NCBI RefSeq assembly: GCF_963676685.1
Contig: NC_092345.1
Coordinates: 75,950,001-76,014,000, forward strand
Length of the DNA stretch: 64,000 nt
Origin: Mytilus edulis
Lineage: Eukaryota
Direction of reading: 5' to 3'
A program made the translations under genes and the position numbers. Under the pieces are notes generated by a model that was given only the letters and a program-made list of their open reading frames with translations, searched no databases and was not told the origin of the DNA. The number at the start of each line of letters is the position of its first letter. Position 1 is the stretch's first letter. Shown here one piece after another: positions 5,343 to 50,223 of the stretch.

Positions 5343-8300
5343 TCAGACCCTGTTGATTCTATCTTGACATAATATTGAGGTCACAATGTCTTCTGGTTTA
5401 ATTAGTCTTGTACTTCCAACAATTACCTGAAAATAAAAAGGAGTTTGTATATATATTATTTAGCACAATACTTCAACATCCTTACTTGATTTTAAATCAT
5501 AGAAAATATTTACAAGACACACTACTGAATAAAAGAAGAATGTGTCCATGGGACACAGACAATGCTGCCACTTGCATATAATGTTATAAAGGGACACAAC
5601 TCAAGAACAGCAAAAGTAAAGCAAAACAAATTTGAACTTAATCTGTGTTTTGTGTATAAGTTTATAACATAAAGTTGAGGCAATCTAAAGGTAGAGAAAA
5701 GAAACTTGTTTTGGGACGTACTGACATACAAGGGCCATCAGTTACTGCAGAGGCATAAAAAGACTAGAAGAGACGACACGAATGGCCCTGTCTCAAAAAG
5801 TTGAAAAATCTGCAATTTCAATAACACATTTGGACACAAACATGATGGTGGTCTCACATATCAAAAATCAGCTCAATATCTGATGGCGTATAGAAAAAAA
5901 GTCTGTATAACTGTGATTTTCAAAAATTTAACATAGTCCAAAGCCCGTAATTTCGGCAAAAATTAGTGGAGTGAAATGAAACTTCCACTTGATCTATAAC
6001 TCATCATGAGTAGCTCACATACCAAAAATCACCCCAATATCTGAAAGCATTTAGAAAAAAAGTCTGTATAACTGTGATTTTCAACAATTTAACAGGTCCA
6101 TACCCCGTAATTTCGGCAAAAATTAGCCAAGCGTAACAAAAGTTTCACTTGATCTGTAACATATCTTGGTTAACTCACATACCAAAAATCATCCCAATAT
6201 CTGAAAGCGTTTAGAAAAAAAAATTTATAACCGATTTTCAACAATTTAACATAGTCCAAAGCCCGTAATTTTGGCAAAAATTAGCGGAGCTGAACGAAAG
6301 TTAAACTTGATCTGTAACTCATCATGGTTAACTCACAAACCAAAAATCAGCCCAATATCTGAAGGCCTTTACAAAAAAACTCTTTATAATGGTTTGTTGC
6401 TGAATGACGGAATGATGGAATTTCTGAATGACGGAATTTCAGAATTTCGGACAAGGGTATAACTATATGGCACTGACAACTTCGTTGTGGGGCCATAAAA
6501 AGAAGAGAAAGTGGGCAATTGAAAATTATAAGTCCACTATGGGCATTAAGATTTCAAAAAATAAACAAACAACAATAACACACTGCTACATACTAAACTT
6601 TAGATATACCAAACAAAGAACCCCACCAAAAAGGTCTAACTCAGACATGTCAGATCGATATTCCCGAAATAATAAGCAGTTCCTACTCTACTAGTGATGA
6701 TGCATTCAAAGTATTACCTGTGATGAAAGTTTAAGTGATGCACATAAGTCCTTTATTTGTTTGAGTTCTGTAGAAGTTACACCTCCAACAACAAATATAA
6801 TCAGTAATGGATGGTCACTAGGGCGTGGTTTACTCACTGTCCTAAATAACCTATCATAAGAAATAAAAACAATATTAAAATCAGTTTACCATTAATGGCT
6901 TTACACAATTGACCAAAAACAGACATACAAACAAACACAAGCAACATTAAGAAAACATGAGGATGTAAAAAGTATCTATAAAACAAGAAAAAGTACAAAA
7001 TCTAAAAGAATCCTTAAAACATAATCACTTTTGATATTTGTGTTGCAATAAAAACTGATTATTTTCACTTCATTTTGTCATTTTAATGAAGTACTTGGAT
7101 GTTTAGAATAATAGTGTATAATGTAATGTAAACCTCACCCAAAGCCAGACTTCAAAAGATCCCCAAATCCTGATGATTTCAGCTCCACATCAGGAAGTTC
7201 TGGTTTGCTGGGATCAAACATTACATTGATCAGCTGTTTTAGTATTGGCATCAGCTGTGAAGGTCCTAAAGCACTTTCCTCACACACAGAACTACAATGA
7301 TAATGAGATTATGCACAGCTATTTACAGTAATATAGATATTGCTTAACAATTGAAGTAAGCCAAACATCATTATACAGTCATGTAGCTCATTAAAGCACA
7401 CCTTACCGGATAGCTTGAATGGACGCCTCACGAATAACTTTTTTTCAATCCGTTCATGTCTGTTAAACATCGGGACTTATCCCTTAGACGTCCGTCTATA
7501 TCTGTTGTATGTTCGTTAAGCGTACGTTTTATCTGTCCGTTGAAAAATTTTGAGCATGTTCAAAACTTTTAACAGACGTCCAAAGGATAAAATGTTCGTT
7601 GAACGTCCGTTAGGTGTCCGTATCGTTTCCGTTTTGTATCTGTTACGTGTCCATTATTCATCCTTTGGAAGATAATAGAGAATTTTTTAAGTCTTGCTGA
7701 TGAATAGTATAATAAAGAGCAAAGTGGTTTTATTATTCGTTGTTATACGAAAAAAAATCATTTACCTGAATTGTTTAAGGTTGTTCCTTGCAGATGATAT
7801 TGCTTTAAACTTCTGCCAAGCATCATCCAGAATGGCTGTTACTACTTCTTCATTTATTGTATCACCAACTGTAAAACACGAAATCAAAAGTTAAAACAGA
7901 TAATGTTAATGCTGACAAAATATGAGTAAGTCTCTTTCAAGACACAAGTGATAAAATATGTGTAAGGTGAGTTGTTTCCAAGACATGTGTGAAAAAAAAC
8001 ATGTATTGGATGAAAGAACAGACAGGTGATTGCAATAGAGTGCACAGACAGTTATAGTATAATAATTTCTCAAACCTCTAAACCCCATTTACATTAAATA
8101 ATTTAATTTTGGATGTAATGCCTCTTCTGATAGGCTTACATCATTGTGTTTATCAGATCATAGACATAATTTATTCATGTGACCATTACGTCATCAACAT
8201 TTTTTCATGGTTTACTCCTGTTTAAAATGGAATTTGGAATTCAATTATAAGAAATAACTGTAATATTTTATCTGTCTATTCAAAATAACGTAAAAAAAAA

Positions 8301-11300
8301 TGTTGCTCACACAGGTTATTCAGTATGCACCACATTTTTTATGTCATTTCTTCATAGACAGAAAAAATATCACAATCATTCCTTAAATATAAACATAAAA
8401 CATTAACAAACCTATCTGCTGGGTCAATGGTGGCAATGTATTCTTCTCTCTCAAAACATACTTCACCAAAACAGCCTAAAACAGGAATACATCTATTCTT
8501 AATTACAAAGTTGATGAGCATTTAGAACCAACAATTGAATAAGGTACCTGTTAATTTCCTAAACTAAAGCATTATTTTATCTTTATTACTGAAACCCAAT
8601 ATAAGTATGTAGTGTTAGCTTTGTCTCTTTTTTTCAGGAGGGTAGTTATAAGGATATTCAAGAAGAGAATAAGAGAATAAAACGACAAAAATATCTTTAA
8701 GTGCCACCCTTGGAAAACTGGAGAAAAATTATACTTCAAAATCTGTTCTTATCTTCAACTAGTGATAGATAATCATGCAAAATTTTATTAATATTTTAAA
8801 GATGACACAAACTAGCTATCTCTCTCTCTCTATATATATATATATATAGTATTTAGTAACAAAAGTCTTCATACGATTAGTCAGAAACCACCCTCTTTTG
8901 AATATTTGTCAAATTTCTATGTTTATAACATACATACTGACAATGTTTCAATACTTTTCAAGTTATCATCCATTCTGGGATTACATTTGTATTCATATAT
9001 CATAACTCTTATAAGAGCACAAATTGACCTTTTACAAGATTTCTCAGGAATAATGTTTATATTATTTTGTAGACTTTACCATAGCTTTAAGTAGTAATAA
9101 AATTCTGGAAAAAGTCTACATTGTGTATCATTAAGTTTTAATATGTTCTCACCTTAACTTGTTCTTCTTTATCACTCTTAATTCTGGTCCCATACACAGA
9201 ATAAACAAACATTATTAGACAGAATATATCATCTAATGTGCAGGATCTGTAAATAAACCATTCAAATAATATTAAAATATTTTTGTATATTTTGTAATTC
9301 CAATAGTCTCTATATACATGTACTGTGGATTCATTATTATACCTTGGATACCAATTTTCGTGGATTTCGTGCATGGGTACAGGTAAAGCTTGAAATTTTC
9401 AATGAATGACAAATTTTTGTATAGGCTTGTATGTAGACCTTGGCAAAACCACAAAATTAAACATCCAGGAATACATAAGATTTCAATTATCCACGAAAAT
9501 AAATATCCAGGAATACATAAGATTTCCTTTATCCACGAAATTAAATAACCAGGAATACAGAAGATTTCCTTTATCCATGAAAATAAATATCCAGGAATAC
9601 ATAAGATTTCCTTTATCCATGAAAATAAATATCCAGGAATACATAAGAGTTCCTTTATCCGCGAAAATAAATATCCAGGAATACATAAGATTTCCTTTAT
9701 CCACGAAATTAAATAACCAGGAATACATAAGATTTCATTTATCCACGAACATAAATATCCAGGAATACATAAGATTTCCTTTATCCATGAAAATAATTAT
9801 CCAGGAATACATAAGATTTCCTTTATCCATGAAAATAAATATCCAGGAATACATAAGATTTTCTTTATCCACAAAAATAAATAACCAGGAATACATAAGA
9901 TTTCCTTTATCCATGAAAATAAATATCCAGGAATACATAAGATTTTCTTTATCCACGAAAATAAATATCCAGGAATAAAAATAAATATCCAGGAATACAT
10001 AAGATTTCCTTTATCCGCGAAAATAAATAACCAGGAATACATAAGATTTCCTTTATCCATGAAAATAAATATCCAGGAATACATAAGATTTCCTTTATCC
10101 ATGAAAATAAATATCCAGGAATACATAAGATTTCCTTTATCCGCGAAAATAAATAACCAGGAATACATAAGATTTCCTTTATCCATGAAAATAAATATCC
10201 AGGAATACATAAGATTTCCTTTATCCATGAAAATAAATATCCAGGAATACATAAGATTTCCTTTATCCGCGAAAATAAATAACCAGGAATACATAAGATT
10301 TCCTTTATCCATGAAAATAAATATCCAGGAATACATAAGATTTCCTTTATCCATGAAAATAAATATCCAGGAATACATAAGATTTCCTTTATCCACAAAA
10401 ATAAATGAATCCACAGTAGACCAGGTATATTTAGTCACTTTTTGGTGAAAATTAACAAAATTCAGATTTTTTTCTTGTAAAGCAAATACCAACATTACTT
10501 GACTAGTCTCTACTTGTCCTGTATACATTTAATTCAACAAAATGTTTAAATAATAAAGGAAAATCAAGGGTTCCATTGAACTATGTGTCTACCATGTGAT
10601 TGCTACTGTCAGTGTAAAAGAGAAATATTCACAGTAAAAAGTGAGTCTATTTATCAGTAAAATACAGGATTAAATTCTCAAACTTTCATTTAAGTTGCTA
10701 TTTTTTTATTTGGAAGATAAGCTTCTGTCCAAATTTCATAAATAATCTTGAAACATTTCAGTCATACATTACAATCAATTCTCATGGTAAGATTGTTTGT
10801 GAAAAGGGCCCAACATCCTTTGCCAACAATTCAATCATAAGAATCAGCTGTCACCAATCTGTTTTATTTTCTGGTTTTAAGACCTTAACAAGATCTCCTA
10901 GTTTTTTTGTGATATTTAACACCTTCAAAAATTTGCAGGCAGACATTTCATTGGTTGACATACTTATCAGAACAGAAAGTAAAACAGACAATTGTTAGAT
11001 TCAAGCTTGGGCACAGGATTTGTATTTCAATCAAGAGAACAATTGTAGCTGACTTGATCAAAGTTTTATTTCAACATCATTGTAAGCAATGGTTACCAAC
11101 ATTCTTATTTAACAAGCATGTGACTAAATCTGTTTGTATATCAAAAGTAGACATTTGGGTTTGTTATTTTACCGTTCAGTTGTTGTCTTCTCTGTCTCTG
11201 TGATAATAAGTCTGTATATCTCTTCTAAAGGATCTGTCTCATCACTGTAACCCTGTATCAACAGTTTCTCAATCCCAGATAGACTGTCTAATTGTTGTTG

Positions 11301-14300
11301 TCTCTGACTTTTTAACAGATGGAAGACTGCCATAGAAACTTGTAACGTATTGATGTGTTTAAGAATCATGTCATATTTCCCCCTAAAAATATAAATTGAA
11401 TCAGCCCTTAGATTAGTTAGCAATTTCAATTCTGTCCAGTAGAACCATTGTTGCTGAAATTTACAAATTTTAATATAAAACTGTTTTAAATCTGTATCAA
11501 TTTTTATTTATATTGATTATTTTATTGTGTTGTTTATTTCACAGAGGCAAAACCAATGGGTGTACAGGTTACTAAGGGGTGTTAAAATACCCAAATCTAC
11601 AGATATGAACATAGATAACAAATTTATCTCTGAATGTTGTTTGTATCTGGCAATTTATAGGGATTTTCTGACAAAAAAGTGTAACGTGAAAGCAATGTTT
11701 GTTTTCCAAACATTCCAAAAAATTTGGAAATGTGCAATATTTTTTACCATCTGTAGAATATACATCCTTTGGTAGAATCCTGCAGGCAGTCATACATTTT
11801 TAATCAAGAGACGGAGAAAATAGAATAAATCAAATTTGGAGCTGAAGATTGTGAGTGTTACACCATAGACAATGTGAAGTCAATGTGGGTACTTTGCATA
11901 TTGCATAACTAGGTAACTATACCTAGTCCTGTTCATTGAAGTGATAGATAAATGATAAATTTTAATGTGCGTATTGTTATGTGTTTACTTTTCTACATTG
12001 GCTAGAGGTATAGGGGGAGGGTTGAGATCTCATAAACATGTTTAACCCCGCCGCAATTTTGCGCCTGTCCCAAGTCAGGAGCCTCTGGCCTTTGTTAGTT
12101 TTGTATGATTTTTAATTTTAGTTTCTTGTGTAAAATTCGAAGTTTAGTTTGATGTCTATTATCACTGTACTAGTATACATATTTTTTAAGGGGCCAGCTG
12201 AAGGTCGCCTATGGGTGCAGGAGTTTCTCGCTATATTGAAGACCCATTGGTGGCCTTAGGCTGTTTTTTACTCTATAGTTGGGTTGTTGTCGCTTTGACA
12301 CATTCCCCATTTCCTTTCTCAATTTTACATGTACTATGATGAATGCCAATGAAAGTCATAATAGAATAAAAGTGTTAATGAATTACATATTCAGTTACAA
12401 TCATCATGGATAATCTACAGAATTCTATCTTTCATTGAAAACAACCATGGAACTTATGAAAATGCATGTGAAGTATCCTAGGGTAATGGTTAACAGAAGG
12501 GATTTTTTAGCAACATATATTAGCCAACTAAAATATGAGAAACAGTTTAAGTCGTAGATAAAATGATATGAACTAAAAACATTCAAAAGCTAAATCATTA
12601 TACTTTTCAACCTTATTAAAAAACTTGGCTATAAACTCACTTGAAAAGAGAAAGAGTATTTTCCAACTGATCTGCAGTAACTCGTCCAGGCTTGCCTGTA
12701 AGCTTTAATGGTAAATTTTCTTTTGAAGCTATGTCTACCAACTGTCTGTTTACTTCCATCAAACCTTCCTTTATAAAAAATGATGTACATTTTTGTACTT
12801 TTATTATCATTTTTGGATACACTGGTCAAAGAATATAATAGTGCATATAAAGTCAAAGAGTTTTTTTTTATTAGTGCCAATAACGACATCCACAATTTGC
12901 AGAAAATACAAAATCAACATTATAGAACTAACAGTTAAATCCTGAGGTCATTTTAAAAAGTTTTCACCAATCTTTAAAATCAACATTTATTGCATAATAT
13001 CAAATAGTAAATTTCATAGAATACAACTGACTCCAACAGTTTTGAGAATTTTCTACTGAGAGTAATCTATTGACAACCTGTTTACATTTAATTTACTACA
13101 AATATCACAAGCCCCAAAGTAAAATGTTAAAATCCTACTTTTAGTTTTATGTCTTATATTTCACAACCAAAGATTTTTTTCTAAAAAGAAATCACAAAGC
13201 AATTTAGACTATGTTCTCATACAATAGCTACATTGTATATGTTTCTACACATAGGGGAAACAATCAATATTAGTCAGTGATGTTTTCATAGAAGGAAAAA
13301 GTATGTATGCTCATGATGCTAGCTGTTACTTTTCTCATTATTTTATAAATCTGCTTCACTAACCAGACAGACTATAAACAGATCTGTACATTGAAGAAAC
13401 TTACCTTTACTTTATTTGTTAGAAGTGGCTGTAAATGTTGTTGGTTGTGTCCATTAAAAGAAGCTAGACACCCAGGTAAGACAGTTGAGGAAGCATCTCT
13501 GAAATATTTACATATTCTATTATCAACTAAAGAAAGCGAATAATAACTTAGAAAAAGATAGATCCCAGATTTAATTAAAGAACCTTAGTGAGCACGCTCA
13601 CATACCCCACGTCCCCACATTGTCATTTGAGAAATTAAATAAGTATAAGAAAAAATATTGAATAATAATTTCCTGTCAATATACACATCTACATAGTACA
13701 TGTATGTCCTTATTATCTACAAAATTTCATGAAATTCTGTTGTGTGTTTTCAGAGGAGTTGAGATGACAAACTTGCAGAAGTACATTGAAGCAAATAAGT
13801 TCAAAGGGGCATAACTCCTAGAAATAAAATTGAATCCTAATTTCCCGTTGATATGCACAACTACATAATATGTCCTTTTCATATAAAAAGATTTCGTGAA
13901 ATTCTGTTGTGTGGTTTGAGAGGAGTTGCGATGACAAACTGTTGCAGTAGTACATTAAGTAAATAAGTTCAAAGGGGCGTAACTCCTAGAAATAAAATTG
14001 AATCGCAATTTCCCATCGATATGCACAACTACATAGTATGTCCTTATTATCTGAAAAGGTTTCGTGAAATTCTGTTGTGTGGTTTGAGAGGAGTTGCGAT
14101 GACAAACTGTTGCAGTAGTACATTAAAGTAAATGAGTTCAAAGGCGCGTAACTCCTAGAAAAAAAATTGAATTGCAATTTCCCGTCGATATGCACAACTA
14201 CATAGTATGTCCTTATTATCTGAAAAGGTTTCGTGAAATTCTGTTGTGTGGTTTGAGAGGAGTTGCGATGACAAACTGTTGCAGTAGTACATTAAAGTAA

Positions 14301-17300
14301 ATAAGTTCAAAGGCGCGTAACTCCTAGAAAAAAAATTGAATCGCAATTTCCCGTCGATATGCACAACTACATAGTATGTCCTTATTATCTGAAAAGGTTT
14401 CGTGAAATTCTGTTGTGTGGTTTGAGAGGAGTTGCGATGACAAGAAACAGGACTGACGGACTGACGGAAGGATCGACGGACTGACGGACGGACTGACGGA
14501 CGGACGGGTCAAAAACATTATACCCTGCGCAACTTCGTTGAGTGGGTTCGTTGCGGAGGGGGTATAATTAAAGGTCTTAAAAGACTTGATTTACAATCAA
14601 GGCATATAGTTTCCAAGTGAACTCTTTGTTTCAACATGAAAGAGAGGAGAAGCATCCAATGGTGGCTTAAATAATAAAACAATAAAAAGTAAATAAATAA
14701 AGTATGATAGTCTATCTCTTAAGTTAGGAACATAAAAAATAATCAGATAAAAGTATGGATCAAAGACACAAAGGGTCACTATACAACAATACTAAAATAT
14801 TTAATAATTTGAACTGTTCTATATAAGTGGTTACCAAAATAGAATGTAGTATAATTTGATTTTTTGTGTTTTTAATGCCACTTTTAAGTACTGCTTTTGT
14901 GCTATTTCTTTGCAGCCAGTTTTTATTGGTGGAGGAAGACAGAGTGCCCAGAGAAAACCACCGGCATTCAAGATGAAAACTGAAATCCTAGTCAATTAAG
15001 ATTGGAGTCGAGTACACCCACACAATTAGGGTTCGACACAAAATCTCAGTGTTCACTGGCTAGTGATTACAGTAGTAACTACTTAGACCTTAAAACAATC
15101 GTGCCCCTTCAATAGTAGCATGAGATATTCATTTATTTCTAAGCAAAACAAAGAAAACTTCATTTTACATGGAGAGATAAAACAGTAATGACCCATCATT
15201 TCATTGACCTGTGTACATGTCAATGACAAAGTGATGATCTACCATTTAACTTATGTATGCATATGAAATAGTTATGATCCATCAGTTAAGGAATTTATGT
15301 AAATGACTTAGTGATGAAATATCACTAAACTAAATTATATTCATGAGTTTAAGTTGAAATATTACTTTATCCACTTGTTTACATGGCATATAGTTAACAT
15401 ACTTCTTATATGTGTAAGTGTTGATTTATCACATTACTAACTTGTGTACATGCCACAGTGATGATCTATCACATTACTTACTTGTGTACATGACACAGTG
15501 ATGATCTATCACATTACTTACTTGTTAACATGACATAGTGATGATCTATCACATTACTTACTTGTGTACATGACACAGTGATGACCTATCACATTACTTA
15601 CTTGTGTACATGACACAGTGATGATCTATCACATTACTAACTTGTGTACATGACACAGTGATGATCTATCACATTACTAACTTGTGTACATGACACAGTG
15701 ATGATCTATCACATTACTAACTTGTGTACATGACACAGTGATGACCCATCACATTTATTACTTGTGTACATGACACAGTGATGATCTATCACATTTGAAC
15801 TTGTGTACATGACACAGGGATGACCTATCACATTACTAACTTGTGTACATGACACAGTGATGACCTATCACATTACTTACTTGTGTACATGACACAGTGA
15901 TGACCTATTACATAACTTAATTGTGTACATAACACAGTGATGACCTATCACATTACTTACTTGTGTACATGACGTAGTGATGACCTATCATATTACTTAC
16001 TTGTGTACATGACACAGTGATGACCTATCACATTACTTACTTGTGTACATGACACAGTGATGATCTATCACATTACTTACTTGTGTACATGACACAGTGA
16101 TGACCTATCACATTACTTACTTGTGTAAATGACACAGTGATGACCTATCACATTACTAACTTGTGTACATGACACAGTGATGATCTATCACATTACTAAC
16201 TTGTGTACAAGACACAGTGATGATCTTTCACATTTATTACTTGTGTACATGACACATTGATGATCTATCACATTACTTACTTGTGTACATAACACAGAGA
16301 TGACCTATCACATTACTAACTTGTGTACATGACACAGTGATGATCCATCATATTACAAACTTGTGTACATGACACAGTGATGACCTATCACATTACTTAC
16401 TTGTGTACATGTCACAGTGATGACCTATCACATTTATTACCTGTGTACATGACACAGTGATGATCTATCACATAACGAACTTGCGTACATGACACAGTGA
16501 TGACCTATCACATTACTAACTTGTGTACATGACACAGTGATGACCTATCACATTACTTACTTGTGTATATGACACAGTGATGACCTATCACATTACTTAC
16601 TTGTGTACATGACACAGTGATGACCTATCACATTACTAACTTGTGTACATGACACAGTGATGATCTTTCACATTACGAACTTGTGTACATGACACAGTGA
16701 TGACCTATCACATTACTAACTTGTGTACATGACACAGTGATGACCCATCACATTACTAACATGTGTACATGACACAGTGATGACCCATCACATTACTAAC
16801 TTGTGTACATGACACAGTGATGTGTACATGACAGTGATGATCTATCACATTACTAACTTGTGTACATGACACACTGATGATCTATCACATTACTTACTTT
16901 TGTACATGACACAGTGATGATCTATCACATTACTTACTTGTTTACATGACATAGTGATGACCTATCATTTTATTAACTTGTGTACATGACATAGTGATGA
17001 TCTATCACATTACTTCCAAGCATTTGTGACATTAAGTTGGCATATCAGTTTAACAACTTTTTTACATGACATAGAGTTGACATGTTACTTACTTGTGTAC
17101 ATGACATAGTGATGACATGTCAATAAGGACATCATTGGTATGGCCTGGTAATCTTGGGAATACACTAGCAATTCTATCAAACAAAGTTTCTGTCTGGTGT
17201 GTACATGATGATCCTATGTCTAAGGTTCTATCAACAAATACAATGGAGGCCTTATTTTGTGTTGACTGCAAAAAACCACCACATTGTTAAAAAGAATCAT

Positions 17301-20300
17301 TCAATGAATAAGGTTTAGGTCAAATAAAACTTTCACACTTACATTTAAAACTTATTATGATTGAGAAACAAACCTAGTCAGAAAAACGTCACATTAACCA
17401 ATGAACTATGATAAAGAGATAAAGGTCATATTAACACTTTCAAATCATATGCCTAAACAAAAATCCCAGCACAAAAGCATCTGTTTACAAGATATGGATT
17501 ATGTTCAACTTTCTGAAATGTGAAACTTTATAGAATAGGTTAATGGACTCTTTGCAATATAGCATCCCAATGTCTTGAATTCTGCTAATCAATAAATGAA
17601 AGTAGATGTGAAAAATATCCATAAAGTAATGCAGCAGATTGAATGTATATAGTTTTGCAAAATTCTTTGTCCATGATAGTTTGTATTTCAAGTTACACTG
17701 CATTCATGTCCAGTGCATGATGATTAATCAATATTGTAGACATCGCAATATCTACAATGTTAACACGATATTGTGTCAACATTGTTTGCATTGTTTGAAC
17801 CCTTATGTATTGTTTACATCGTTGACATAGTTAACATCGCGATGTATACAATCTAGAAAAAATATATTGTGTTTACATTGTTTACATCGCGATGTATACA
17901 ATGTTAACACCATGTTGTGTCAACATCGTATACATTGTTTCAACCCTTATATATTGTTTACATCGTTGACATCGTTAACATTGCGATGTATACTATGTTA
18001 ACACACAACATCGTATAAATTATTTGAACCCTTATGTATTGTTTACATCGTTGACATTGTTAACATCATGATGTATACAATCTAGAAAAAATATATTGTG
18101 TTTACATTGTTTACATCGCGATGTATACAATGTTAACACGATGTTGTGTCAACATCGTATACATTGTTTGAACTCTTATATATTGTTTACATTGTTGACA
18201 TCGTTATCATCGCGATGTATACAATGTTTACACGATATTGTGTGTACATCGTTTACATTGTCTTAACTCTTATATATTGTTTACATCGTTGACATCGTAA
18301 ACATCGTTTTGTATACAATGCTAAAAAGATTTTGTGTTTACATCGCCATATAAACTATGTTGACACTATTTTGTGTTAAATTAAAGCTATAACATCACAT
18401 TTAATTAAAATATTTGTTGTTAAAAAAAACATAAAAATGCAAACTGTATATATGTAGTCGACAAACTTCATTGAATAATTATTATATGAATGGATAAAAA
18501 AACTTTTTTTTATTGATATTGTCAACATCACAATGTATACGATGTGAACGATGTAAATGATGTATAAACAATATTCAAACATCAAGATATAAACGATGTT
18601 AACGATGTAAACAGAAAGTTATAGAGTCGATATACAACATAAACACGATGTTGACACGATATTGTCAACATTGTGATGTATACGATGTGAATGGTGTAAA
18701 CACAAAGGTAAAGACTTGGTTCACAACAACAATACGATGTTGACGATGTAAAAACGATATTGTCAACATCACGATGTATACGATGTGAACTATGTAAACA
18801 GAAAGGTATGGACTTGGTTCACAACATCTATATGATGTTGACGATGTAAAAACTATATTGTCAACATCATGATGTATACAATGTGAATGATGTAAACAGA
18901 AAGGTATGGACTCTATATTCAACATAAACACGATGTTGACACGATATTGTTTACATCACGATGTATACGATGTGAACGATGTAAACACAAAGATTAAGAC
19001 TTGGGTCACAACATTTATACAATGTTGACAATGTAAAAACGATATTGTCAACATCACGATGTATACGATGTCAACGATGTAAACAGAAAGTTATAGAGTC
19101 AATATACAACATAAACACGATGTTGACAGGAATTGTTAACATAACGAATATACGATGTGACAAAGGTACAGAACATAAAGATAGGATACAATGTTAACAC
19201 AATAACGACACTATAAAGTTGACATTGCGATGTTGACAATATCGACAAAACATCATGCACTGGACATACTTCTTACACTGGGCAGCAGTTTTCAAATCAT
19301 CAGAGGAAATTTTCAGTTGTGCATCTGTTAAAAACGCTAGCATGCTTACATTTTCTATATATAACTCTCTATTCTAAGTGTAAGAAAAATGCAAAAGACC
19401 TTATAAACCAAGCTAATCCAGTAATAAAGATAATACTTTATTTAGCTGACCTTACAATGGTTAAATGCTATGGAAAAAGTAAGACAAGTTAAATCATCAG
19501 ACTGAAACATTGTTATTGTAATTGTAATGAGGCAAACCTTTCGTCTTGTCTTAGCTGGAGCATAATTAGCCAATTCAGTAGCCAAGATCCTACTAGTTGG
19601 TCCTATAGAGTAGCAGTCTTCACTGACAGCTAATTCTGACAATAAACTGTCAATACTAGAAACAAATGTCTGAAAATCAAAACAAACAAATCAATGGCAA
19701 TAAAAAAAATTCACATCAGTTACAGCAGATTCCATTGAGTGTGTAGCCAAAGGTAATATCTTTAGTTAGCTTGCTTGTTAGCTGAACCGTGAAGTCATTG
19801 TTACGGAATCCGTTGTAATTGGCAAACTAAATTGAATTTATTTACATTTTATCCATCAGATAATCATGTGAAACCTTTAAGAATAAAATTGAGAATGGAA
19901 ATGTATATTTAAAGGGTCTGTTGATACAGCATGATGGTTGACAGTTAACACACTAAAATGCTAGACCAAATAATTTGATTCTAAGAAAAGAACCATGAGA
20001 AACTATAAATATCAGTCCCTTTGAGTCCCTTTTAGCTTGGAGACTGAAATCTATATCAACAAGAAGCTATAGAAAAATATCCAAAACCAAAGAAAAGTTT
20101 TCAGTCCCTTTAACACCTTATCATGCTTATAGCTTGGAGATTGAAAACTTTTTCAAGCGGAAGACATGCCAAATTATGATTTCTAGCCCCTTTTAGCCCT
20201 TTTTTTCAATCTCCACGCTGTTGGTGTTCATAAATGACCTACTTCAATAACTAATTCCTTATGGCTGTTACATACATGTATCATTAAAGAACCTTAGTGA

Positions 20301-23300
20301 GCACGCTCACATACCCCACGTCCCCACATTGTCATTGGAGAAATTAAATAAGTATAAGAAAAAATATTGAATAATAATTTCCTGTCAATATACATAGTAT
20401 GTCCTTATTATCTACAAAATTTCATGAAATTCTGTTGTGTGTTTTCAGAGGAGTTGAGATGACAAACTGTTGCAGAAGTACATTGAAGCAAATAAGTTCA
20501 AAGGGGCATAACTCCTAGAAAAAAATTGAACCGTAATTTCCTGTTGATATGCACATCTACATAGTATGTCCTTATTATCTACAAAGTTTCATGAAATTCT
20601 GTTGTGTGGTTTGAGAGGAGTTGCGATGACAAACTGTTGCAGTAGTACATTAAAGTAAATAAGTTCAAAGGGGCATAACTCCTAGAAAAAAAATTGAATC
20701 GCAATTTCCCGTTGATATGCACAACTACATAGTATGTCCTTATTATCTGAAAAGGTTTCGTGAAATTCTGTTGTGTGGTTTGAGAGAAGTTGCGATGACA
20801 AACTGTTGCAGTAATACATTAAAGTAAATAAGTTCAAAGGGGCGTAACTCCTAGAAAAAAAATTGTATCGCAATTTCCCGTCGATAAGCACATCTACATA
20901 GTATGTCCTTATTATCTGAAAAGGTTTCGTGAAATTCTGTTGTGTGGTTTGAGAGGAGTTGCGATGACAAACTGTTGCAGTAGTACATTAAAGTAAATAA
21001 GTTCAAAGGGGCGTAACTCCTAGAAAAAAAATTGAATCGCAATTTCCTGTCGATATGCACAACTACATAGTATGTCCTTATTATCTAAAAAGGTTTCGTG
21101 AAATTCTGTTGTGTGGTTTGAGAGGAGTTTCGATGACAAGAAACAGGACTGACGGACTGACAGACGGACAGACGGATGGGTCAAAAACATTATACCCTCC
21201 GCAACTTCGTTGCGTGGGGTATAATAAATCACAAACTAGACCATGTTACATAAAAACATAAACTAAAAGATGAACTTTATAATCATCGAAATGATATCCA
21301 CAGCTGTAAATAACTTACTTTGAACCAAATCTGTAGATTAGCTGGTAGACAGGTCATGTCAAGGTCATTTAAACATTCAAATTGTTTCTTCTCTGCCTTT
21401 AAAATTGAAACAATAATACAAAATAACATTATAAACATACCAAACACTATTTTGATGAGCTATTAAACACCAAATGGGTTTTCACATATATCAAAGATCT
21501 AGGAAATCTTCCATAAGATTTCAAAATACTTCATTCGTACAAGAAAGAAAAAACACATAAGCTTAACCAATGCAATTTTAACATAAAAACACATGATTTT
21601 GAATATTACAAGTAAAACTTGAAATTGAAAATATGTCAGAGTTAAGTAATGAGTTAGGGTCTTCATAAGTAAAATTTCCTAATATGCACAATGTAAAACA
21701 AATTTTCTTTAAATTTATGAGGAGTTACTAAAAACATTTATTTTAGTCTTAAGAAGCGTCCTTTATAAAAGGTTATACTGTGAACATTCATTGCAGTAAT
21801 GCCCTTCATAAAAGGTTAATACTGAAAAGATTTCCTGCAGAAAAGTCACCTTCATAAAAGGTTAAAACTGAGAACACTAATTGCTGAAGTGCCCTTCATT
21901 AAAGGTTACTAATTGGTCTTCAACAAAGAAGCAGAACACTGTATATTAAGCACTTGTTATATATTTTAACTAATCAGACATGATTAATTTCTGCACTACG
22001 GTATGTATGCATTTGTTAAACCCTGGTTCAATAAATAACTGTACCTGTTTCAAACATGTTAATTTCTGACAACTACTAAAAATAAGGAATAAAAGTTATC
22101 AATGCATGCATAAATGCAGTCTAGTGTAAAAGAGGGACAAAAGATACCAAAGAGACAGTCAAACTCATAAATCTAAAACAAACTGACAAACTGACAACGC
22201 CAACGTAAAATGCTTCTTAACATTATCAATACTGTGGATTCATTATTATTTATTCGTTGGATACCAATTTTCGTGGATTTCATGGGTATGGAAGCCTTGA
22301 ATTTTAAAAATGTTCAATTAATTGCAAATCTGCTGTATAATTATATGCAGCCTTTAGAATAACCATGAAATCAAGTATCCACAAATATGCAAGTCTTCAT
22401 CAATCCACGAAAATTGGTACCCACGAAAATAAATGAATACACAGTAATTAGTTGAAAGCTAATCATGAGCATACCTTTTTACTAGCATGTTGTATTCTGA
22501 GCTGTTTGACATCTGTTTCTATCAAGGGGAATAACTCTGTAAATGCTGGTGTTATAAATACATTATTGCTTATGCAAGACATCAGAATAGGAATATGTTT
22601 TATCTCAGCTGTGTAATTCTGAAAAAATAAGCACATTTTAATGTAAACAAGAATGTGTCCTCAGTACACGAATGCCCCACTCGCACTATCATTTTCCATG
22701 TTCAGTGGACCGTGAAATTGGGGTAAAAACACTAATTTGGCATTAAAATTAGAAAGATCATATCATAGGGAACATGTGTACTAAGTTTGAAGTCGATTGG
22801 ACTTCAACTTCATCAAAAACTACCTTGACCAAAAACTTTAACCTGGAGCGGGACAGACGGACGAACAGACAGACAGACAGACAGACAGACAGACGGACGA
22901 ACGGACGAACGGACGAACGGACGCACAGACCAGAAAACATAATGCCCCTCTACTATCGTAGGTGGGGCATAAAAATAACTATATTTGCACGTTTGATAAC
23001 AATGGAACATACTTATGACATTTGATGTAATAACAACAAGTCCTAGCTGAAAATAACAGAATACCATTAAATTAATTAGACATGTACTACTCATCTAAGT
23101 TATTTAAGATTTGAGATATATGAAAAAACATATTTCTCCTGCTTGATAGTCCTCACAATAAAGTTTTACAAGGATCACATAAACTTACATCATCAATAAG
23201 CCATCAAAATAGAGTCAAGGTCAGTCAGATGAAACCTATCAGAAAGACATATACACCTTATAATAATTCCATTCACCAAATATAGCTGATGTACAGTATC

Positions 23301-25089
23301 TGAGAAATGGACCTAATCATTTAACTTTAACCTTGTTTACTGATCCATGAAATGAGGTTGAGGTCAAATAAAATGTAAACCTTGCAAGGAACCTATAAAC
23401 TAAATTTAAAAATTGATACAGCTATCCTAATACACTGAGTTAGAACTTCACATGACAAAAAAACATAAACAGATGTAAATGAGGTCTAGGACAAAGGAAA
23501 TATGATAGACAGGAAAATGAAATTCCAGGTCTTTCATGCTCTGAAATATAAAGCTTTATACATATAAATTTTATACTACCATCACTGCTGCATGATTTTT
23601 ATCTCTATGACTTGAATAAGAGATTTTTTTTATTAATATTGAGACAAAAACTTTGCAAATGACTGTCTCTATTTTTTGGTATAGAAGAAATCAATTGACT
23701 TTTGGCCTTCAAAGACAATAGGTGGAGGTTTATCATTTCAAATGGGTAAGTTAACTCTACAACTCTCTCAACTATCAAACATAGTTATCAGCTTTTGAAA
23801 TAATATCTATATTAATTGTTTACCATATTTTCCATCCATTCTAAGAGATCTTCTTCAAATGCATCAAAAATGGAATGTGTGTCACCATCATAGCTTCCTG
23901 ATTTTTTGAAGAGATGCATTCTTGGAGTCACTGCTGTTATTATGATGACATACTGAAAATGACTAGCCTGAATTATATCTTGGATTATTTCCCTTGTTAT
24001 CACTTCTTCTAAGCAGCTACTTGTAATAAATACAGCTTTCTTTTGATGACTCTGGGCACTCTGTGAAATAAGTTAAACATAGTTTAACATCCTGAATATA
24101 CAATGTATGTTTTATTAGATACATAACATTGTATTTTTAGATTATATTATTATATAATCTTAACATGAAGATGACCTTAGTAAAACCTTGTAATTGAGAT
24201 TAAAAATAGGAATAACTACAGTAGAATAAGATGACTTAACAAGACATCATTTTTGCTTAATAGAGGTGCCCCTTTTAGGAGGGTTGACTTATGTTAGCCC
24301 TTGTTTTATGACTGATTAATCATTTTATTTATTTTCTTTTGTTACATCTTTTGACATCAGACTCGGACTTCTCTTGAACTGAATTTTAATGTGCGTATTG
24401 TTATTCTTTTACTTTTCTACATTGGCTAGAGGTATAGGGGGAGGGTTGAGATCTCATAAACATGTTTAACCCCGCCGCAATTTTGCGCCTGTCCCAAGTC
24501 AGGAGCCTCTGGCCTTTGTTAGTCTTGTATGATTTTAAATTTTAGTTTCTTGTGTATAATTCGGAGTTTAGTATGACGTCCATTATCACTGTACTATTAT
24601 GCATATTTTAGGGGCCAGCTGAAGGACACCTACGGGTGCGGGAATCCTCGCTACATTGAAGACCCATTGGTTGCCTTCGGCTGTTGTTTGCTCTATGGTC
24701 GGGTGGTTGTCGCTTTGACATATTCACCATTTCCTTTCTCAATTTTATAATCATTTTGAAAATGATTATAATCATATATTCAATCACCCTTGTTTTATGA
24801 CTGATTAATGTATAATCATTAATGATTATAATCATATATTCAATCACCCTTTTTTTTTATGACTGATGAATGTATAATTATTGATGATTATAATCAAATA
24901 TTCAATCATGTTTACCTCAAAAGATGAAAATTCTTTAACATCAACAGCTCCTGCTTCAGTAAGGGCAGACAACCCACCATTCCAATGAAGGACTTCTGCA
25001 CATGCATTGTCTATAAATACAACAGCCTTGTTAACATCTATAAATACTTCCTTCCAGACTTCACTTGATACCATTGATATTGTCTTCAT
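5343..25089 (-). CDS. SCFD2: Sec1 family domain-containing protein 2, complete CDS, 15 coding exons, 666 aa
   Basis: Exons (minus strand): 25089-24916, 24060-23824, 22618-22475, 21396-21319, 19669-19538, 17265-17093, 13498-13405, 12768-12641, 11382-11173, 9246-9153, 8475-8412, 7868-7766, 7291-7139, 6850-6718, 5426-5343. All are GT-AG, phases are consistent, and the total is 2001 nt. Recognised SCFD2 motifs: KAVVFIDNACAEVLHW, LLEWMENMNYTAEI, LANYAPAKTRRK, ASIVFVDRTLD, LPGHTNDV, MEVNRQLVDIASKENLP, PRPSDHPLLIIFVVGGVT, VIVGSTRLIKP. Confidence 0.95.
5762..6500 (+). mobile_element. Helentron/pearl-type non-autonomous element with ~155-bp internal tandem repeats
   Basis: About 3.5 degenerate internal units (…CCCGTAATTTCGGCAAAAATTAG…), a GACGGAAT microsatellite-like tract, and a 3' hairpin ...ACAACTTCGTTGTGGGGCCATAAAAA. 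Confidence 0.65.
9321..10418. mobile_element. MITE (TACTGTGGATTCATT TIRs) containing an expanded 42-bp minisatellite
   Basis: TACTGTGGATTCATT at 9321 and AATGAATCCACAGTA ending at 10418. An unexpanded 217-bp sibling lies at 22230-22446. Confidence 0.85.
9452..10404. repeat. 42-bp minisatellite, about 23 copies, with a 126-bp (3-mer) higher-order repeat in its 3' half
   Basis: Unit AAAATAAATATCCAGGAATACATAAGATTTCCTTTATCCATG. The variant CCGCGAAAATAAATAACC recurs at 10015, 10141 and 10267, exactly 126 bp apart. Confidence 0.95.
11960..12327. mobile_element. Dispersed SINE-like repeat (copy 1)
   Basis: Highly similar to 24384-24747. Its 3' end (TTGAAGACCCATTGGTGGCC...TTTGACACATTCCCCATTTCC..TCTCAATTTT) recurs at ~56700-56795 and ~63885-63976. 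Confidence 0.75.
13576..14568 (+). mobile_element. Helentron-associated (HINE/pearl/MgE-like) element with 169-bp internal satellite, copy 1
   Basis: 5' end TAAAGAACCTTAGTGAGCACGCTCACATACCCCACG; ~4.5 tandem 169-bp units (same phase at 13986, 14155, 14324); (GACG/GACT)n microsatellite; 3' hairpin ATACCC..GCAACTTCGTTG..GGGGTATAAT. Subterminal inverted repeat ATACCCC/GGGGTAT. Confidence 0.85.
14856..15107 (-). mobile_element. tRNA-derived SINE with V-domain-like core
   Basis: The minus strand begins GGGGCACG with a degenerate tRNA-like head (GTGTCGAACCC B-box-like), then TGGTTTTCTCTGGGCACTCTGTCTTCCTCCACC, which resembles the V-SINE central domain. A-rich tail. Confidence 0.55.
15417..17015. repeat. 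40-bp minisatellite, about 40 copies, derived from the SCFD2 exon 6 3' end and splice donor
   Basis: Unit ACTTGTGTACATGACACAGTGATGA(T/C)CTATCACATTACT(T/A) matches the real exon/intron junction at 17085-17116 (TTACTTACTTGTGTACATGACATAGTGATGAC). Degenerate copies extend to ~15170 and ~17090. Confidence 0.95.
17706..19267. mobile_element. Foldback-type element with 17-bp TIRs and long inverted arms of short degenerate repeats
   Basis: ATGTCCAGTGCATGATG (17706-17722) versus CATCATGCACTGGACAT (19251-19267). The left arm is built from GTTTACATC/ACATCG units and the right arm from their complements (GATGTAAAC/CGATGT). Confidence 0.75.
20285..21225 (+). mobile_element. Helentron-associated (HINE/pearl/MgE-like) element with 169-bp internal satellite, copy 2
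   Basis: Near-identical to 13576-14568. 169-bp period at 20682, 20851 and 21020. 3' hairpin ATACCCTCCGCAACTTCGTTGCGTGGGGTATAAT. Confidence 0.85.
22230..22446. mobile_element. MITE with TACTGTGGATTCATT TIRs (unexpanded sibling of 9321-10418)
   Basis: TACTGTGGATTCATTATT...GGATACCAATTTTCGTGGATTTC at the left end and CCACGAAAATAAATGAATACACAGTA at the right end. Confidence 0.8.
22645..22975 (+). mobile_element. Helentron/pearl-type non-autonomous element with (GACA)n(GACG)n microsatellite
   Basis: Starts AACAAGAATGTGTCC...ATGCCCCAC, contains a tetranucleotide microsatellite at ~22852-22930, and has a 3' hairpin ATGCCCCTCTACTATCGTAGGTGGGGCATAAAAA. Confidence 0.8.
24384..24747. mobile_element. Dispersed SINE-like repeat (copy 2)
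   Basis: Highly similar to 11960-12327 over ~365 bp. Confidence 0.75.
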
Positions 25090-30376: not shown

Positions 30377-32929
30377 ATTATATACAGGAGCTATAAAAAT
30401 TTCGATATTGATAACTTTAAAAATGATATTGCTAAAATTAAAATTGAAATTGTAGATGGAGTAACAACTGCAGAACAGGTAAATGAGATCTACCAAACAT
30501 ATGAAAATAACTTTATTAAAACACTAGACAAACATGCACCTTTGAAGTCAAGGTATCCCAGAAAAAGTCCTCTTCCATGTATGAATGGAGAATTAAGAAA
30601 AGCCATATACAGAAAACACATGCTATTTTCTCAGTACACCAAAAAAAGAAATAATCATACTTGGGAAAAATTCAGACAGCAAAGAAATTTGGTAAATAAG
30701 TTAAAAAAGAAATCTATGAAAATATATTTTTTAGAACGCTGTTCTGGAGGATCAAAAAGTGCTGATTTTTGGAATACTGTCAAACCTTTCTTTTCAAAAA
30801 AATGCAAATCCCAAGGGCAAAAGACTATTTTATTTGAAGAAAACAAAATTATAAATAATTCAAAAGATGTATCAGATATTTTTAAAAATTTTTTTGCTAC
30901 TGTTGCTGAGAAGATAGGAAATGATGTTATATATGATCCATTAAACAATCATAGCTTAAATGCCATACATGAGCAAAATCACTTGAAAACAGATGCAAAT
31001 TTTAAATTTCAAAAGGTGACATCAGAAAAAGTGGAAAAAATCATAAATAAAGTTAATGTCAAAAAAGCAACTGGAGCAGATGGGATACCAGCAAAAATAG
31101 TAAAAGCTAGTAAATCTGTCGTTGCACCTCAGCTAACCAGTCTTATAAATTTGACTCTGGACACGGGCATATTTCCAGACAAACTTAAAGAAGCCCAAGT
31201 TACACCCTTACATAAAAAGAGTGACCCACTACTTAAATCAAATTACAGACCAGTCAGTGTGTTACCTATTTTTTCAAAATTTTACGAAAAAATATTTGAA
31301 ATACAGTTATACGATTTCTTTGATTCCATTTTTAACCCTTATTTATGTGCTTTCCGTAGGGGACATGGATGTCAGACTACGTTGCTCAGATTACTGGAAG
31401 ACTGGCGTAAAGCTTTAGACAAAAACTTATATATAGCTGCAGTTCTTATGGATTTATCAAAAGCTTTTGACTGCTTACCTCATGAAATTTTACTAGATAA
31501 ATTACTAGCATATGGTGTTTCTCCACATTCAGTATCTTTATTAAAATCATATCTTTCTGATAGAAAACAGCAAATTAAAGTAAACGGTGTTCTGAGTAGC
31601 TGGGCTGACATCCAAAAAGGGACACCCCAAGGTTCTATATTGGGGCCCCTTTTATTTAATATCTTCATAAATGATATTTTTTATTTTGTTAAACATGGTA
31701 CATTATATAATTATGCGGACGACAATACTCTGTCTTTTAGTAGTCCGGATTATGACCATCTCATATCAACATTAGAATCTGAGTCTCAAGTGCTTATTGA
31801 TTGGTTTAAAGAAAATAAGATGCAGGCAAATCCTGATAAATTCCAAGTTATTGCTGTAGGGAAAAGAACCTTTGCCAAAAATCCATCTATACAAATTCAG
31901 CAAAATATTTTATCATGTGAAGAAACAGTAAAGTTACTTGGAATTGATATTGATTACCAACTAAAATTTGATGCACATATAAGTAACTTGTGTAGAAAGG
32001 CATCACAACAGCTGAATGTTCTCAAGAGAATTGGATCATTTTTAAACAGATTAAATAAACTTACAATTTTTCATACTTTTATTTTGAGTAATTTTAATTT
32101 TTGCCCTTTGGCTTGGCATTTTTGTACTGAGAAAAATTCTAAAAAACTTGAAAAAATACAAGAGAGAGCATTACGATTTGTATACGACGACTATTTATCA
32201 TCCTCTGAAACTCTTCTTGAGAACGCAAAGGTTCCAACCCTACAAGTAAGACGCATCAGGACAATGGCACTTGAGACTTATAAAATTTTAAATAATTTGG
32301 CTCCTGTATGTTTACAAAATTTAATAAAAATTAAACACACTAAATATTCTTTTAGATACAGCAATATTTTGGATGTACCACAGGTAAGAACTACCTCATA
32401 TGGAAAAAAATCTTTTAGTTTTGCTGCTGCTACTTTATGGAATAGCTTACCTGACCACTTCAGGACTGTTAACAGCTTCTCACATTTTAAGAGTCTTGTA
32501 CAGTCCTGGAGTGGAACAGAATGTTTTTGCTCTGCCTGTAGATAACTTTGTGTTACAATATTTATGCTTTTTATGTTGCATTAACAGCCTGCGTTGCAAC
32601 TGAAATTTTGTTTTTTACCTTTTAAAATTTGAAAGATTTGAAATTTTTTACTTTATAATTCATAAATTATTTTAAAAAAAAATTTTTAAACAGAAATTTT
32701 TTAGTGCTTCATATATATGTTTTGGTATTTTGCAAGATACATGTATTATCTATTTGCTTAGAGTTAATTTTTGGTGCTGCTTCTTATTATTTATTGCATG
32801 CTGCATGCCTTGTTTTATTTGTTATTGCATATGTTTTTATATTCGGTGAAAAGCTCATTAGAGCTTATGTTTGTACTGTTTGTCAATATGCCGAATCCAA
32901 ATAAAGTTTTACTTACTTACTTACTTACT
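30377..32929 (+). mobile_element. 5'-truncated CR1-type non-LTR retrotransposon
   Basis: The frame is open from 30377 (IIYRSYKNFDIDNFKNDI...LDKHAPLK) to 32545. The endonuclease domain is absent. The 3' UTR ends in AATAAA followed by an (ACTT)n microsatellite tail at ~32908-32929. Confidence 0.9.
30542..32545 (+). CDS. LINE ORF2 reverse transcriptase (N-terminally truncated, no internal stops)
   Basis: Motifs KATGADGIP, NYRPVSVLP, AVLMDLSKAFD, GTPQGSILGPLLFNIFIND, NYADD, KLLGIDID, and a C-terminal WSGTECFCSACR. Confidence 0.9.
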   Translation: MKSRYPRKSPLPCMNGELRKAIYRKHMLFSQYTKKRNNHTWEKFRQQRNLVNKLKKKSMKIYFLERCSGGSKSADFWNTVKPFFSKKCKSQGQKTILFEENKIINNSKDVSDIFKNFFATVAEKIGNDVIYDPLNNHSLNAIHEQNHLKTDANFKFQKVTSEKVEKIINKVNVKKATGADGIPAKIVKASKSVVAPQLTSLINLTLDTGIFPDKLKEAQVTPLHKKSDPLLKSNYRPVSVLPIFSKFYEKIFEIQLYDFFDSIFNPYLCAFRRGHGCQTTLLRLLEDWRKALDKNLYIAAVLMDLSKAFDCLPHEILLDKLLAYGVSPHSVSLLKSYLSDRKQQIKVNGVLSSWADIQKGTPQGSILGPLLFNIFINDIFYFVKHGTLYNYADDNTLSFSSPDYDHLISTLESESQVLIDWFKENKMQANPDKFQVIAVGKRTFAKNPSIQIQQNILSCEETVKLLGIDIDYQLKFDAHISNLCRKASQQLNVLKRIGSFLNRLNKLTIFHTFILSNFNFCPLAWHFCTEKNSKKLEKIQERALRFVYDDYLSSSETLLENAKVPTLQVRRIRTMALETYKILNNLAPVCLQNLIKIKHTKYSFRYSNILDVPQVRTTSYGKKSFSFAAATLWNSLPDHFRTVNSFSHFKSLVQSWSGTECFCSACR

Positions 32930-39560: not shown

Positions 39561-39589
39561 CTCAAGTCCATCAAAGGGAATGCCTATAC

Positions 39590-40276: not shown

Positions 40277-42435
40277 CAATTGTTTGGGTACTTGCTTTCA
40301 TTAAACGCTATGTATCTACCTAATCGAATTCTTGCAGATAGTTAAATCGTGTAAACTCAAAACATTCTATCACTTCTTCAATTAACTACAGGTATTTTCT
40401 TAAATAGAAGATGATTAAATCTGATGTTTAGTTATAGACCTATCACTTGTTTGACAGTCTCATGAAATCTGTTATATTGAAAATGATGTGTGAACAAAAC
40501 AAACAGACAGATATTAGAGGTAAAAGTGTCATAAATAGGAATACATTAATCTTAATCACTATAAAACAAGTAAACTATGAACAGACAAGGCATATATAGA
40601 CAAAGCACCTAAGCAAAACCAAAAGACAAAAGTAATTTACTATAGCACAATTACAGGATGTACAAGAAATGAGCCAAGTCAAATGGATATCACCAAAACA
40701 GAATAAACAGTAAAAGTAATAGTATACAAAGACAAATAAAAGAATACTATATAACAAGTTATTAAGAAGAAAAACAACGTCAATACGTTGAATCTATATT
40801 ACAAAAGATCATCGTGTCACAGTTAGTCAACTCCCTGTATTCTATTATTTCAATAAACTAGAGACAAGATAGTAATAATTGTATGCAACCGATACAGTCG
40901 TGTCTCAGTTGATCGATTGTATCGATTATATTACTGTAATTAACTAGGGGCATCAATCGAATTCAATCGATACGATTCTGTCAACTCATTCGATTCTATA
41001 ACTGCAATTTACTTGGTGCACGATCGTATTCAATCGATACGAGTGTGCCACAGTTGATAGACTCAATCGAGTTTATAACCTTCTTCTTTGAAATGAAATA
41101 GAACGAACTAATTGAGTGGTTTTTTTCTGTTTCTGTATTTTGATGTATTTGGAAGAGTTAATTGCAACGGCAGTTGATGTTAAGTTTTCTTTTGGTGGTG
41201 TTGATAGTAATAATCGTGCCTTCCATTTAAAGGAAAAGTTAATTGAATCGACAGCCGAACATTGAATCAATATCAATCGTATCAATTATAACGTTTCGAT
41301 TAGACGTGAGAACTAAAATCAAAATTTTAATCAGACGTTTTATCGAATGCACAACATGTAAATGTATTAACCATCTTTAGATAAAACTATTGGAATAAAA
41401 GTTTAACCGGAGAACAAATTTCCTGTGCGTAATTGTGTTAAAATAGCTTTCCGTTCATTCATACTATCTGTTATGAATGTTCAATGAGCCACTCTGCTCT
41501 ATTCTTATTAGCATTTATCTGGAGTAATAGGAAGCAATGACGACATTTAGAATGATTTTCTTTAAGAATTAGTTTATCAGCCATAACCTGGATCTGTTAA
41601 TGATGCTTTCAAATGATATGCTCGAGTTAAAACTGTGGTGTTTATCATGAGGACCGGTAGTAAGTGTTGAATTGGTTAAATGTCGGAAATATTTATCTTA
41701 TTAGATCTCTCAAATCATAAGGTAAGGTAGTATGTGTAGAATTTGTTAAATTTCGGATACTTTTATACTTATTTTAATTCGCTATCTTCATGAGGTAATG
41801 TAGTATGTGTAGAATGAATTGGTTGAATATCGCATATACTCGTACTTATCTAAATTTACTATCTTCATGAGGTAAGATATTATATGTAGGATTAGTTAAA
41901 ATTAATGTCGAATATACTTATTTAAGTTCATTATCATTTGTATGAGTAAAGATTCTTATTTACTTGATTTACTTCGTTTTATATATGATACACAAGACTT
42001 CAAAGTCTTATGGTAATGAAAAAATAAGATGCTAGCATATTTTAGACACTCTTAAATATAAATGTTAAATACCAAGGGAGACCTTTAAAACTTACGAATC
42101 GAAGAGAAACTTATAATGCCATGGTAATACACGAAAATGTAGGCAAATCCGGCCCCACTTTTTGCTCCTGGTAAGTTCGAATTTGGATGTTAAGTTCCAC
42201 TCCGTGCTGTCACAATTGAGGAATAGAGGACGGGATTGTGGTAATAGCAATTGAAACATATCCATTGTCATCTGTGACGCCGGTATTCTATAACGGTCGG
42301 TCAATCAACTCGTGAAGACGGTCGTGAAACCTTTGATGGTATTATAAAAATACCAATGCAAAAATCTATCAATATTACACATTAAGTTTACCTAATAACC
42401 ATGTTTTTCTAATTTTGTTTTCAGCCTGGTACAGA

Positions 42436-49898: not shown

Positions 49899-50223
49899 AA
49901 AAATATTTTAGCACCTTATGTTTGTGGTTTACCATCTTTGTCGCAAGTTTATTGTTTTCTGTTTGGTATTAAATTAATATAAAGATCCATTTTGTTACAT
50001 CTTTGTGTTTAATTTATTTGGCAATCGTTAATGGCAGTCATTAAGGTTTAAGATCATCAGTTGTCTGACCTGTTAGTCAAAAGAGTTTTGTTAAAATATA
50101 CCTTTTCACTCTTTTAAATTTTTTTGAAAATGTTGTTTGTGCTGTATTTTGCCCAATCTACAACGAAGTTTGTTTTACATGCAAGAAATAAATATAATTA
50201 AATGCCATGTAGTTTTTTTTCAG

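Follow-up and report, generated by a model that had tools for sequence, protein, structure and literature searches.

A 40-bp minisatellite derived from the end of exon 6 and the start of intron 6 of SCFD2 in the mussel Mytilus edulis

Intron 6 of the gene coding for Sec1 family domain-containing protein 2 (SCFD2) in M. edulis contains a 40-bp minisatellite, which is specific to this locus, derives from the boundary between exon 6 and intron 6, and carries the 5' splice site of exon 6 in repeated form. The array is probably an unremarkable addition to a class of repeats that has already been described in genes of humans and lancelets. With a probability of roughly 84%, we regard it as a drifting, junction-derived minisatellite that would be tolerated by the choice of the first donor, with nonsense-mediated decay (NMD) as a presumed backstop. 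All coordinates given below refer to the window, the stretch of 64,000 nucleotides that was analysed (contig NC_092345.1, positions 75,950,001 to 76,014,000 of the forward strand).

The host gene and the structure of the array

Fifteen coding exon matches were obtained in a tblastn search of the window with the Mytilus Sec1-family-domain protein 2 (P0001), which place the SCFD2 coding span at 5346..25089 on the minus strand. SCFD2 is a single-copy gene, as a genome-wide search lists this locus only, and exons 1 to 8 are identical to the M. edulis entry P0004 (387/387). Coding exon 6 (17093..17265, minus strand, 173 nt) is supported by tblastn and by the RNA contig X19; it is preceded by CAG, ends in CAA/GTAAGT, and its last ~30 nt served as template for the repeat. 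Its product (STQNKASIVFVDRTLD...SSLCHVH-K, beginning with STQNKASIVF) matches P0001 at 98% (PF00995), and a Pfam scan with the 57 amino acids of exon 6 alone gave no family match. The authentic donor CAA/GTAAGT (17087..17095, minus strand, phase 2) is used in the RNA contigs X19, X15 and X17 and reached by both reads of run X24. Intron 6 is 3,594 nt long and ends with the acceptor TATTTCAG, followed at 13498 by coding exon 7 (13405..13498, minus strand), where the RNA contigs X15 and X17 arrive from the end of exon 6. Expression of SCFD2 is low, with one read pair on exon 6 per 8.7 million reads in X24, which corresponds, very roughly, to 1 FPKM. The 686-amino acid isoforms P0006 and P0007 had been considered as microexon-containing forms and were rejected, as they carry N-terminal extensions instead.

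Tandem Repeats Finder (TRF) detects a 40-bp period at 15427-16822 (34.9 copies, 92% matches), which runs on to 17015. Unit parsing, combined with TRF, defines a homogenised core of 39 full 40-bp units and one 17-bp partial unit at 15427..17007 (minus strand), and the GT dinucleotide at the donor position is kept in 38 of the 39 units, which bears out the original prediction of about 40 repeated 5' splice sites derived from the end of an SCFD2 exon. The consensus hexamer GTAAGT is found in only 16 of the 39 units; the weakened variants named in that prediction are indeed present (GTTAGT in 14 units, GTAATA in three, GTTCGT in two), and GTTAAT, GTTTGT, TTAAGT and GTTCAA occur once each. Consensus and weakened donors had also been said to alternate along the array, which did not hold: the order of donor types comprises 15 runs compared to 19.8 +/- 3.0 in 20,000 shuffles and is, if anything, clustered (P(<=) = 0.07). 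After omission of one unit with a 1-base deletion, the remaining 38 comprise 26 distinct sequences, and core units differ from the consensus at 2.2 positions on average. Two columns of the unit are dimorphic, namely +3 within the donor (A in 20, T in 18 units) and +17 outside of it (G in 21, A in 17 units), and their variants are unlinked across units (12/9/9/8); this pattern fits repeat turnover rather than tuning. Variant alleles number 18 in the 23 exon-like columns, seven in the six donor columns and eight in the remaining 11 columns. Selection for weaker donors was considered and finds no support, as column +3 resembles column +17 and the number of variant alleles per column is similar.

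The core is bordered by decayed copies on both sides. Two of them adjoin exon 6 (17008..17082, minus strand; score 73 versus 28.8 +/- 4.8 in 300 shuffles) and carry the hexamers GTTGTT, 35 nt downstream of the authentic donor, and GGAAGT, which lacks GT, 75 nt downstream. The distal edge (15160..15425, minus strand; score 233 versus 75.2 +/- 8.9 in 300 shuffles) consists of about six degenerate copies, most of which have lost their donors. Both edges score higher than all 300 shuffles, whereas the scores of two control stretches were reached by 51 and 130 of 300. The three copies nearest to the authentic donor, with GTTGTT, GGAAGT and GTTAAT, thus have poor donors, so that the first consensus rival is encountered only 155 nt downstream of the authentic donor. 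These poor donors could reflect selection against leaky splicing; however, the far edge has lost its donors as well.

Several further tandem repeats were observed in the window. Arrays with periods of 169 bp and 158 bp are located in or near SCFD2 introns (13697-14507, 20391-21139 and 5853-6448), one of which ends in a GGAC microsatellite; we presume that they resemble bivalve non-autonomous elements with internal repeats. A 42-bp, frame-preserving tandem array in another stretch of SCFD2 intron sequence (9449-10406) produces spurious open frames on both strands, and unrelated RNA contigs match intron 6 in places around 13573-13690. Elsewhere in the window, reverse-transcriptase-like retroelement frames, identified from motifs by eye, are found at 30377-32545 (plus strand, 722 amino acids) and, as fragments, at 37132-37530 and 39019-39561 (both minus strand). 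Two long single open frames on the plus strand presumably code for a class A GPCR-like protein (42337-43680, 447 amino acids) and a beta-1,3-galactosyltransferase-like protein (50213-51181, 322 amino acids).

Origin from the exon 6/intron 6 junction

It had been proposed that the array arose by amplification across the junction, and this origin is well supported. The consensus unit matches the junction at 35 of 40 positions in its best register, which comprises 28-32 exon and 12-8 intron nucleotides; the register originally suggested, 23 exon nucleotides plus 17 intron nucleotides, reaches 33/40, so that the derivation of the unit from exon end and donor stands while its exact boundaries are shifted. 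The letters in front of the donor differ between exon 6 (...GACATG-TCATCACTAT) and the array units (...GATAGR-TCATCACTGT), and the two core units nearest to exon 6 share with the exon an A at position -15. When a 30-mer spanning the junction was compared with the next 2 kb, 38 positions matched at 22/30 or more, whereas the same test with 29 other boundary probes of SCFD2, among which later exon ends are approximate, gave no nearby copies; the likeness is therefore not due to chance. Furthermore, the end of exon 6 can be aligned with vertebrate SCFD2, which indicates that the exon predates the repeat and that the repeat was derived from the exon.

The array unit is confined to its host gene. 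A pattern search of the genome gave 35 matches and a BLAST search gave 13, every one of them at the SCFD2 locus, and neither search revealed a copy elsewhere, with the proviso that BLAST-type DNA searches may skip repeats. Independent DNA runs also contain the array: a contig from run X6 (organism C) covers 16986-17717 with two differences and extends from intron 5 through exon 6 into the first unit, and both X6 and X5 (organism B) yielded short contigs of units (depth 49-119 versus 6.8 in X6), whose summed depth is far above that of the flanks and does not translate into a copy number. In X5, the first units are present in two forms, one of which has a 4-base insertion. Of the explanations considered, the least probable is consequently that the array is an error of the assembly, or a dispersed satellite of other origin whose similarity to the exon is fortuitous. 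The array was not seen in full on any single read, and the exact copy number is that of the assembly; however, the 26 distinct sequences among 38 units, the decayed edges, the presence of the array in X5 and X6 and the restriction of the unit to SCFD2 all speak against it.

Splicing of exon 6 and the function of the repeated donors

The use of the repeated donors was assessed in six of the seven RNA runs listed, on stretches beside the array, and four runs from three studies were informative; X16, whose contig stops two letters beyond the acceptor, and X18, in which the exon is not covered, were left out as uninformative. X19 provides one contig (17093-17267), which leaves the window sequence at both ends and at 17093 runs into exon-7 letters, three of 30 of which differ from the window. 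X24 contributes the two reads of a single pair among 8.7 million reads, which stop at the donor bin and for which the letters of the junction partner were not listed, and has zero depth at 16930-17091. X15 and X17, which come from one study, each contain one contig that reaches 13498 from the end of exon 6 with letters absent from array units; exon-6 letters immediately precede exon 7, and the joint between exons 7 and 8 is present, too. All four informative runs accord with use of the authentic donor at 17093, and no junction of a decoy donor or a microexon was found in them, with the reservation that contigs drop rare forms and that stop-bearing RNA would likely decay. The power of this test is low, as it comprises three contigs and one read pair from animals whose array genotype may differ from that of the window. 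In line with the RNA records, all 12 Mytilus SCFD2 proteins that span the junction (15 of 18 cluster members were listed) contain SSLC(H/Y)VHK once, followed by DASS, and none contains a second copy of SSLCHVHK.

Transcripts that read through the donor encounter AAG TAA in frame and would code for a product of 313 instead of 666 residues. The truncation postulated for the downstream donors is thus correct; however, the stop is supplied by the GTAA of the authentic phase-2 donor, and it would be encountered even if there were no array. No stop-bearing isoform was seen in the RNA examined, which was shallow and obtained without an NMD block.

A near-neutral passenger repeat would account for these observations as follows. 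The array was probably founded when a segment of about 30 exon and 10 intron bases was duplicated in tandem, and it would then have been expanded and homogenised through slippage or unequal exchange, and variant letters such as A/T at +3 may have spread by repeat turnover rather than by selection on donor strength. By analogy with human F7, the spliceosome may commit to the most upstream donor, thereby closing the 173-nt exon 6, and the array would be removed together with intron 6. Any leak would end at AAG TAA after 313 of 666 residues and would likely be cleared by NMD, so that small leaks would cost little. The choice of the first donor is likely to apply here, although this step is borrowed from work in mammalian cells and the host is a mollusc, and silence of the decoys is not guaranteed, as human 6-16 and CBS use their nearest pseudo-sites.

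It was originally suggested that the array acts as a splicing and NMD rheostat, in which decoys divert transcripts to stop-bearing RNA and the length of the array sets the level of SCFD2. The ingredients for such a mechanism are present: most of the 16 consensus decoys equal the real donor in their match to U1 by a simple count, every decoy product would carry a stop, and X5 contains the first units in two forms. In addition, the nearest pseudo-sites are active in 6-16 and CBS, according to the introduction of PMC1557585, and human tandem-repeat length has been tied to splicing in general, as far as the text of PMC10078293 at hand describes. We nevertheless consider a rheostat improbable, since decoy junctions are absent from the four informative runs, the nearest consensus decoy lies at 155 nt and the donor types display no sign of order or selection. 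The text available of PMC1557585 further reports for F7 that the use of pseudo-sites dropped with distance and that exon skipping took over, and, within this genome, similar arrays are found in genes unrelated to SCFD2. It would be an even bolder step, and one we judge slightly less probable still, to view array length as a heritable dial of SCFD2 that works through a hidden share of NMD targets from donors at least 155 nt inside the intron, and the similar mussel arrays as a class of copy-number splicing regulators.

Two further roles had been put forward, as a source of microexons and as a U1 sink, and we regard each of them as highly unlikely. The potential microexon, an AG/24 nt/GT segment that would add another SSLCHVHK, was expected in every unit; it is found in 33 of the 39, of which 32 are free of stops, one contains an in-frame stop and 16 have GTAAGT, and a similar model for the gain of exons or introns was put forward for amphioxus mirages in the text at hand of PMC3087553. 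As anticipated, the decoy acceptors lack a proper polypyrimidine tract: they are purine-rich, end in GTGATAG and contain on average 34% pyrimidines at -20..-4, compared to 41-76% in seven of the seven real SCFD2 acceptors checked, all of which also have a T-rich stretch immediately upstream of AG. Moreover, exon-6 letters directly abut exon 7 in X15 and X17, inclusion was seen in none of three junction contigs, a comparison of low power, and the motif is doubled in none of the 12 proteins. With 16 consensus sites within 1.6 kb, the array might instead titrate U1 snRNP or, as a variant of this idea, shield the transcript from early polyadenylation at the four AATAAA motifs created by variant units (16974, 16438, 16238 and 15759, minus strand). 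However, SCFD2 is weakly expressed (~1 FPKM, very rough), the genome contains 38,102 AGGTAAGT sites and U1 is highly abundant, all of which count against a sink, and a shield would merely offset the cost of motifs that the array itself has made. Taken together, rheostat, sink and microexon source gain no support from the four RNA runs, all of which used the authentic donor; low-level leakage and copy-number effects are likewise unsupported, though compatible with so few records. The passenger repeat described above is therefore our preferred reading.

Boundary-spanning minisatellites in other genes and in the mussel genome

Minisatellites that span exon-intron boundaries have been described in human and lancelet genes, and the SCFD2 array shares five of their features. 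Its first unit lies across a real boundary, for which there is protein and RNA evidence, the donor is repeated head to tail in the intron, and the unit is host-derived and confined to the locus. A homogenised core is flanked by diverged edge units, and the four informative of six RNA runs make use of the authentic donor, the most upstream one, at a low depth at which minor forms are undetectable. A close counterpart is the 37-bp VNTR in intron 7 of human F7, whose pseudo-sites are competent and are used only once the upstream donors have been killed (Borensztajn et al. 2006, PMC1557585; text available in part). There, too, the first monomer lies across the boundary, the period is similar, the donor is repeated and the most upstream donor is used. 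However, the 5-9 copies in F7 all carry one donor sequence and include four exon bases each, whereas the 39 copies in SCFD2 include about 30 exon bases each and vary in their donors, and the edges of the array are decayed; furthermore, the competence of the F7 pseudo-sites was determined experimentally, whereas the SCFD2 array is known from its sequence and a few RNA records.

The introduction of PMC1557585 also mentions human 6-16, with 25 pseudo-sites, and CBS intron 13, in each of which two pseudo-sites are used in addition to the authentic donor, and the boundary minisatellites of lamin B2 and PDGF, in which only the authentic donor is used. In these arrays of 10-25 repeated donors, use is confined to the authentic or nearest sites; two pseudo-sites are active in 6-16 and CBS, whereas in SCFD2 the three nearest copies are poor and no decoy use was seen in the few RNA records. 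Amphioxus 'mirages' in Adh3, troponin C, the globins BflGb6 and BflGb9, and PGBD5 leave splicing undisturbed; their length instability has been demonstrated, and gain of exons or introns was proposed as a long-term outcome (PMC3087553, PMC3902484; text available in part). Like the SCFD2 array, they are tandem duplications at boundaries of invertebrate genes, with a homogenised core from which the boundary units are excluded and with normal splicing, but they belong to another phylum, the host of the SCFD2 array being a bivalve mollusc, and the globin mirages have only 3-6 copies. Since extra donors are mostly silent in this class, as in F7 and the mirages, and the RNA seen here is normal, the SCFD2 array alone probably matters little. 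No report of boundary-spanning minisatellites in Mytilus or other bivalves was found in the open-access literature, and the SCFD2 splicing literature does not mention the repeat among the matches listed (best 15 of 32).

Similar arrays are present elsewhere in the mussel genome. A search for three spaced copies of AGGTAAGT gave 589 matches, the first 100 of which, as listed, represent 19 other loci, and all of these were examined. Conserved coding sequence ends at the donor of the first copy in at least seven of the 19, as judged from sequence evidence. These loci code for CFAP100/CCDC37 (L029), SETD9 (L032), a ubiquitin hydrolase (L033, where the scripted cut was three bases early), mucolipin (L037), Vps16 (L038, with a Pfam match below the cut-off), a P5A ATPase (L041) and copine (L046). 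The remaining 12 are unconfirmed: L043 and L045 have no Pfam or PDB match, nine have no Pfam match, and the frame at L039 is too short with 10 amino acids. Frames that end at the first donor were observed at L043:2749-2901 (plus strand), L045:2189-2416 (plus strand) and L031:1695-1802 (-/+), which are likely to be more such cases; we take the L043 frame to resemble rabenosyn-5. A regular 1,423-bp tandem array with AGGTAAGT in each of its 39 listed copies was also noticed at G000:C1:2768842-2822772 (plus strand). The motif is not enriched in tandem arrays, as 589 triple matches compare with 775 for the reversed control and 38,102 single sites with 73,856, and there is accordingly no case for a mechanism that targets junctions.

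The SCFD2 array represents a larger natural case than F7, with 16 consensus rivals, for studying the choice of the first donor in molluscs. As at least seven of the 19 sampled arrays are located at coding-exon ends, the mussel genome offers a genome-wide set in which leakage can be related to distance and donor strength. If it were true that array length tunes expression, such arrays would constitute regulatory variation that is missed by SNP studies.
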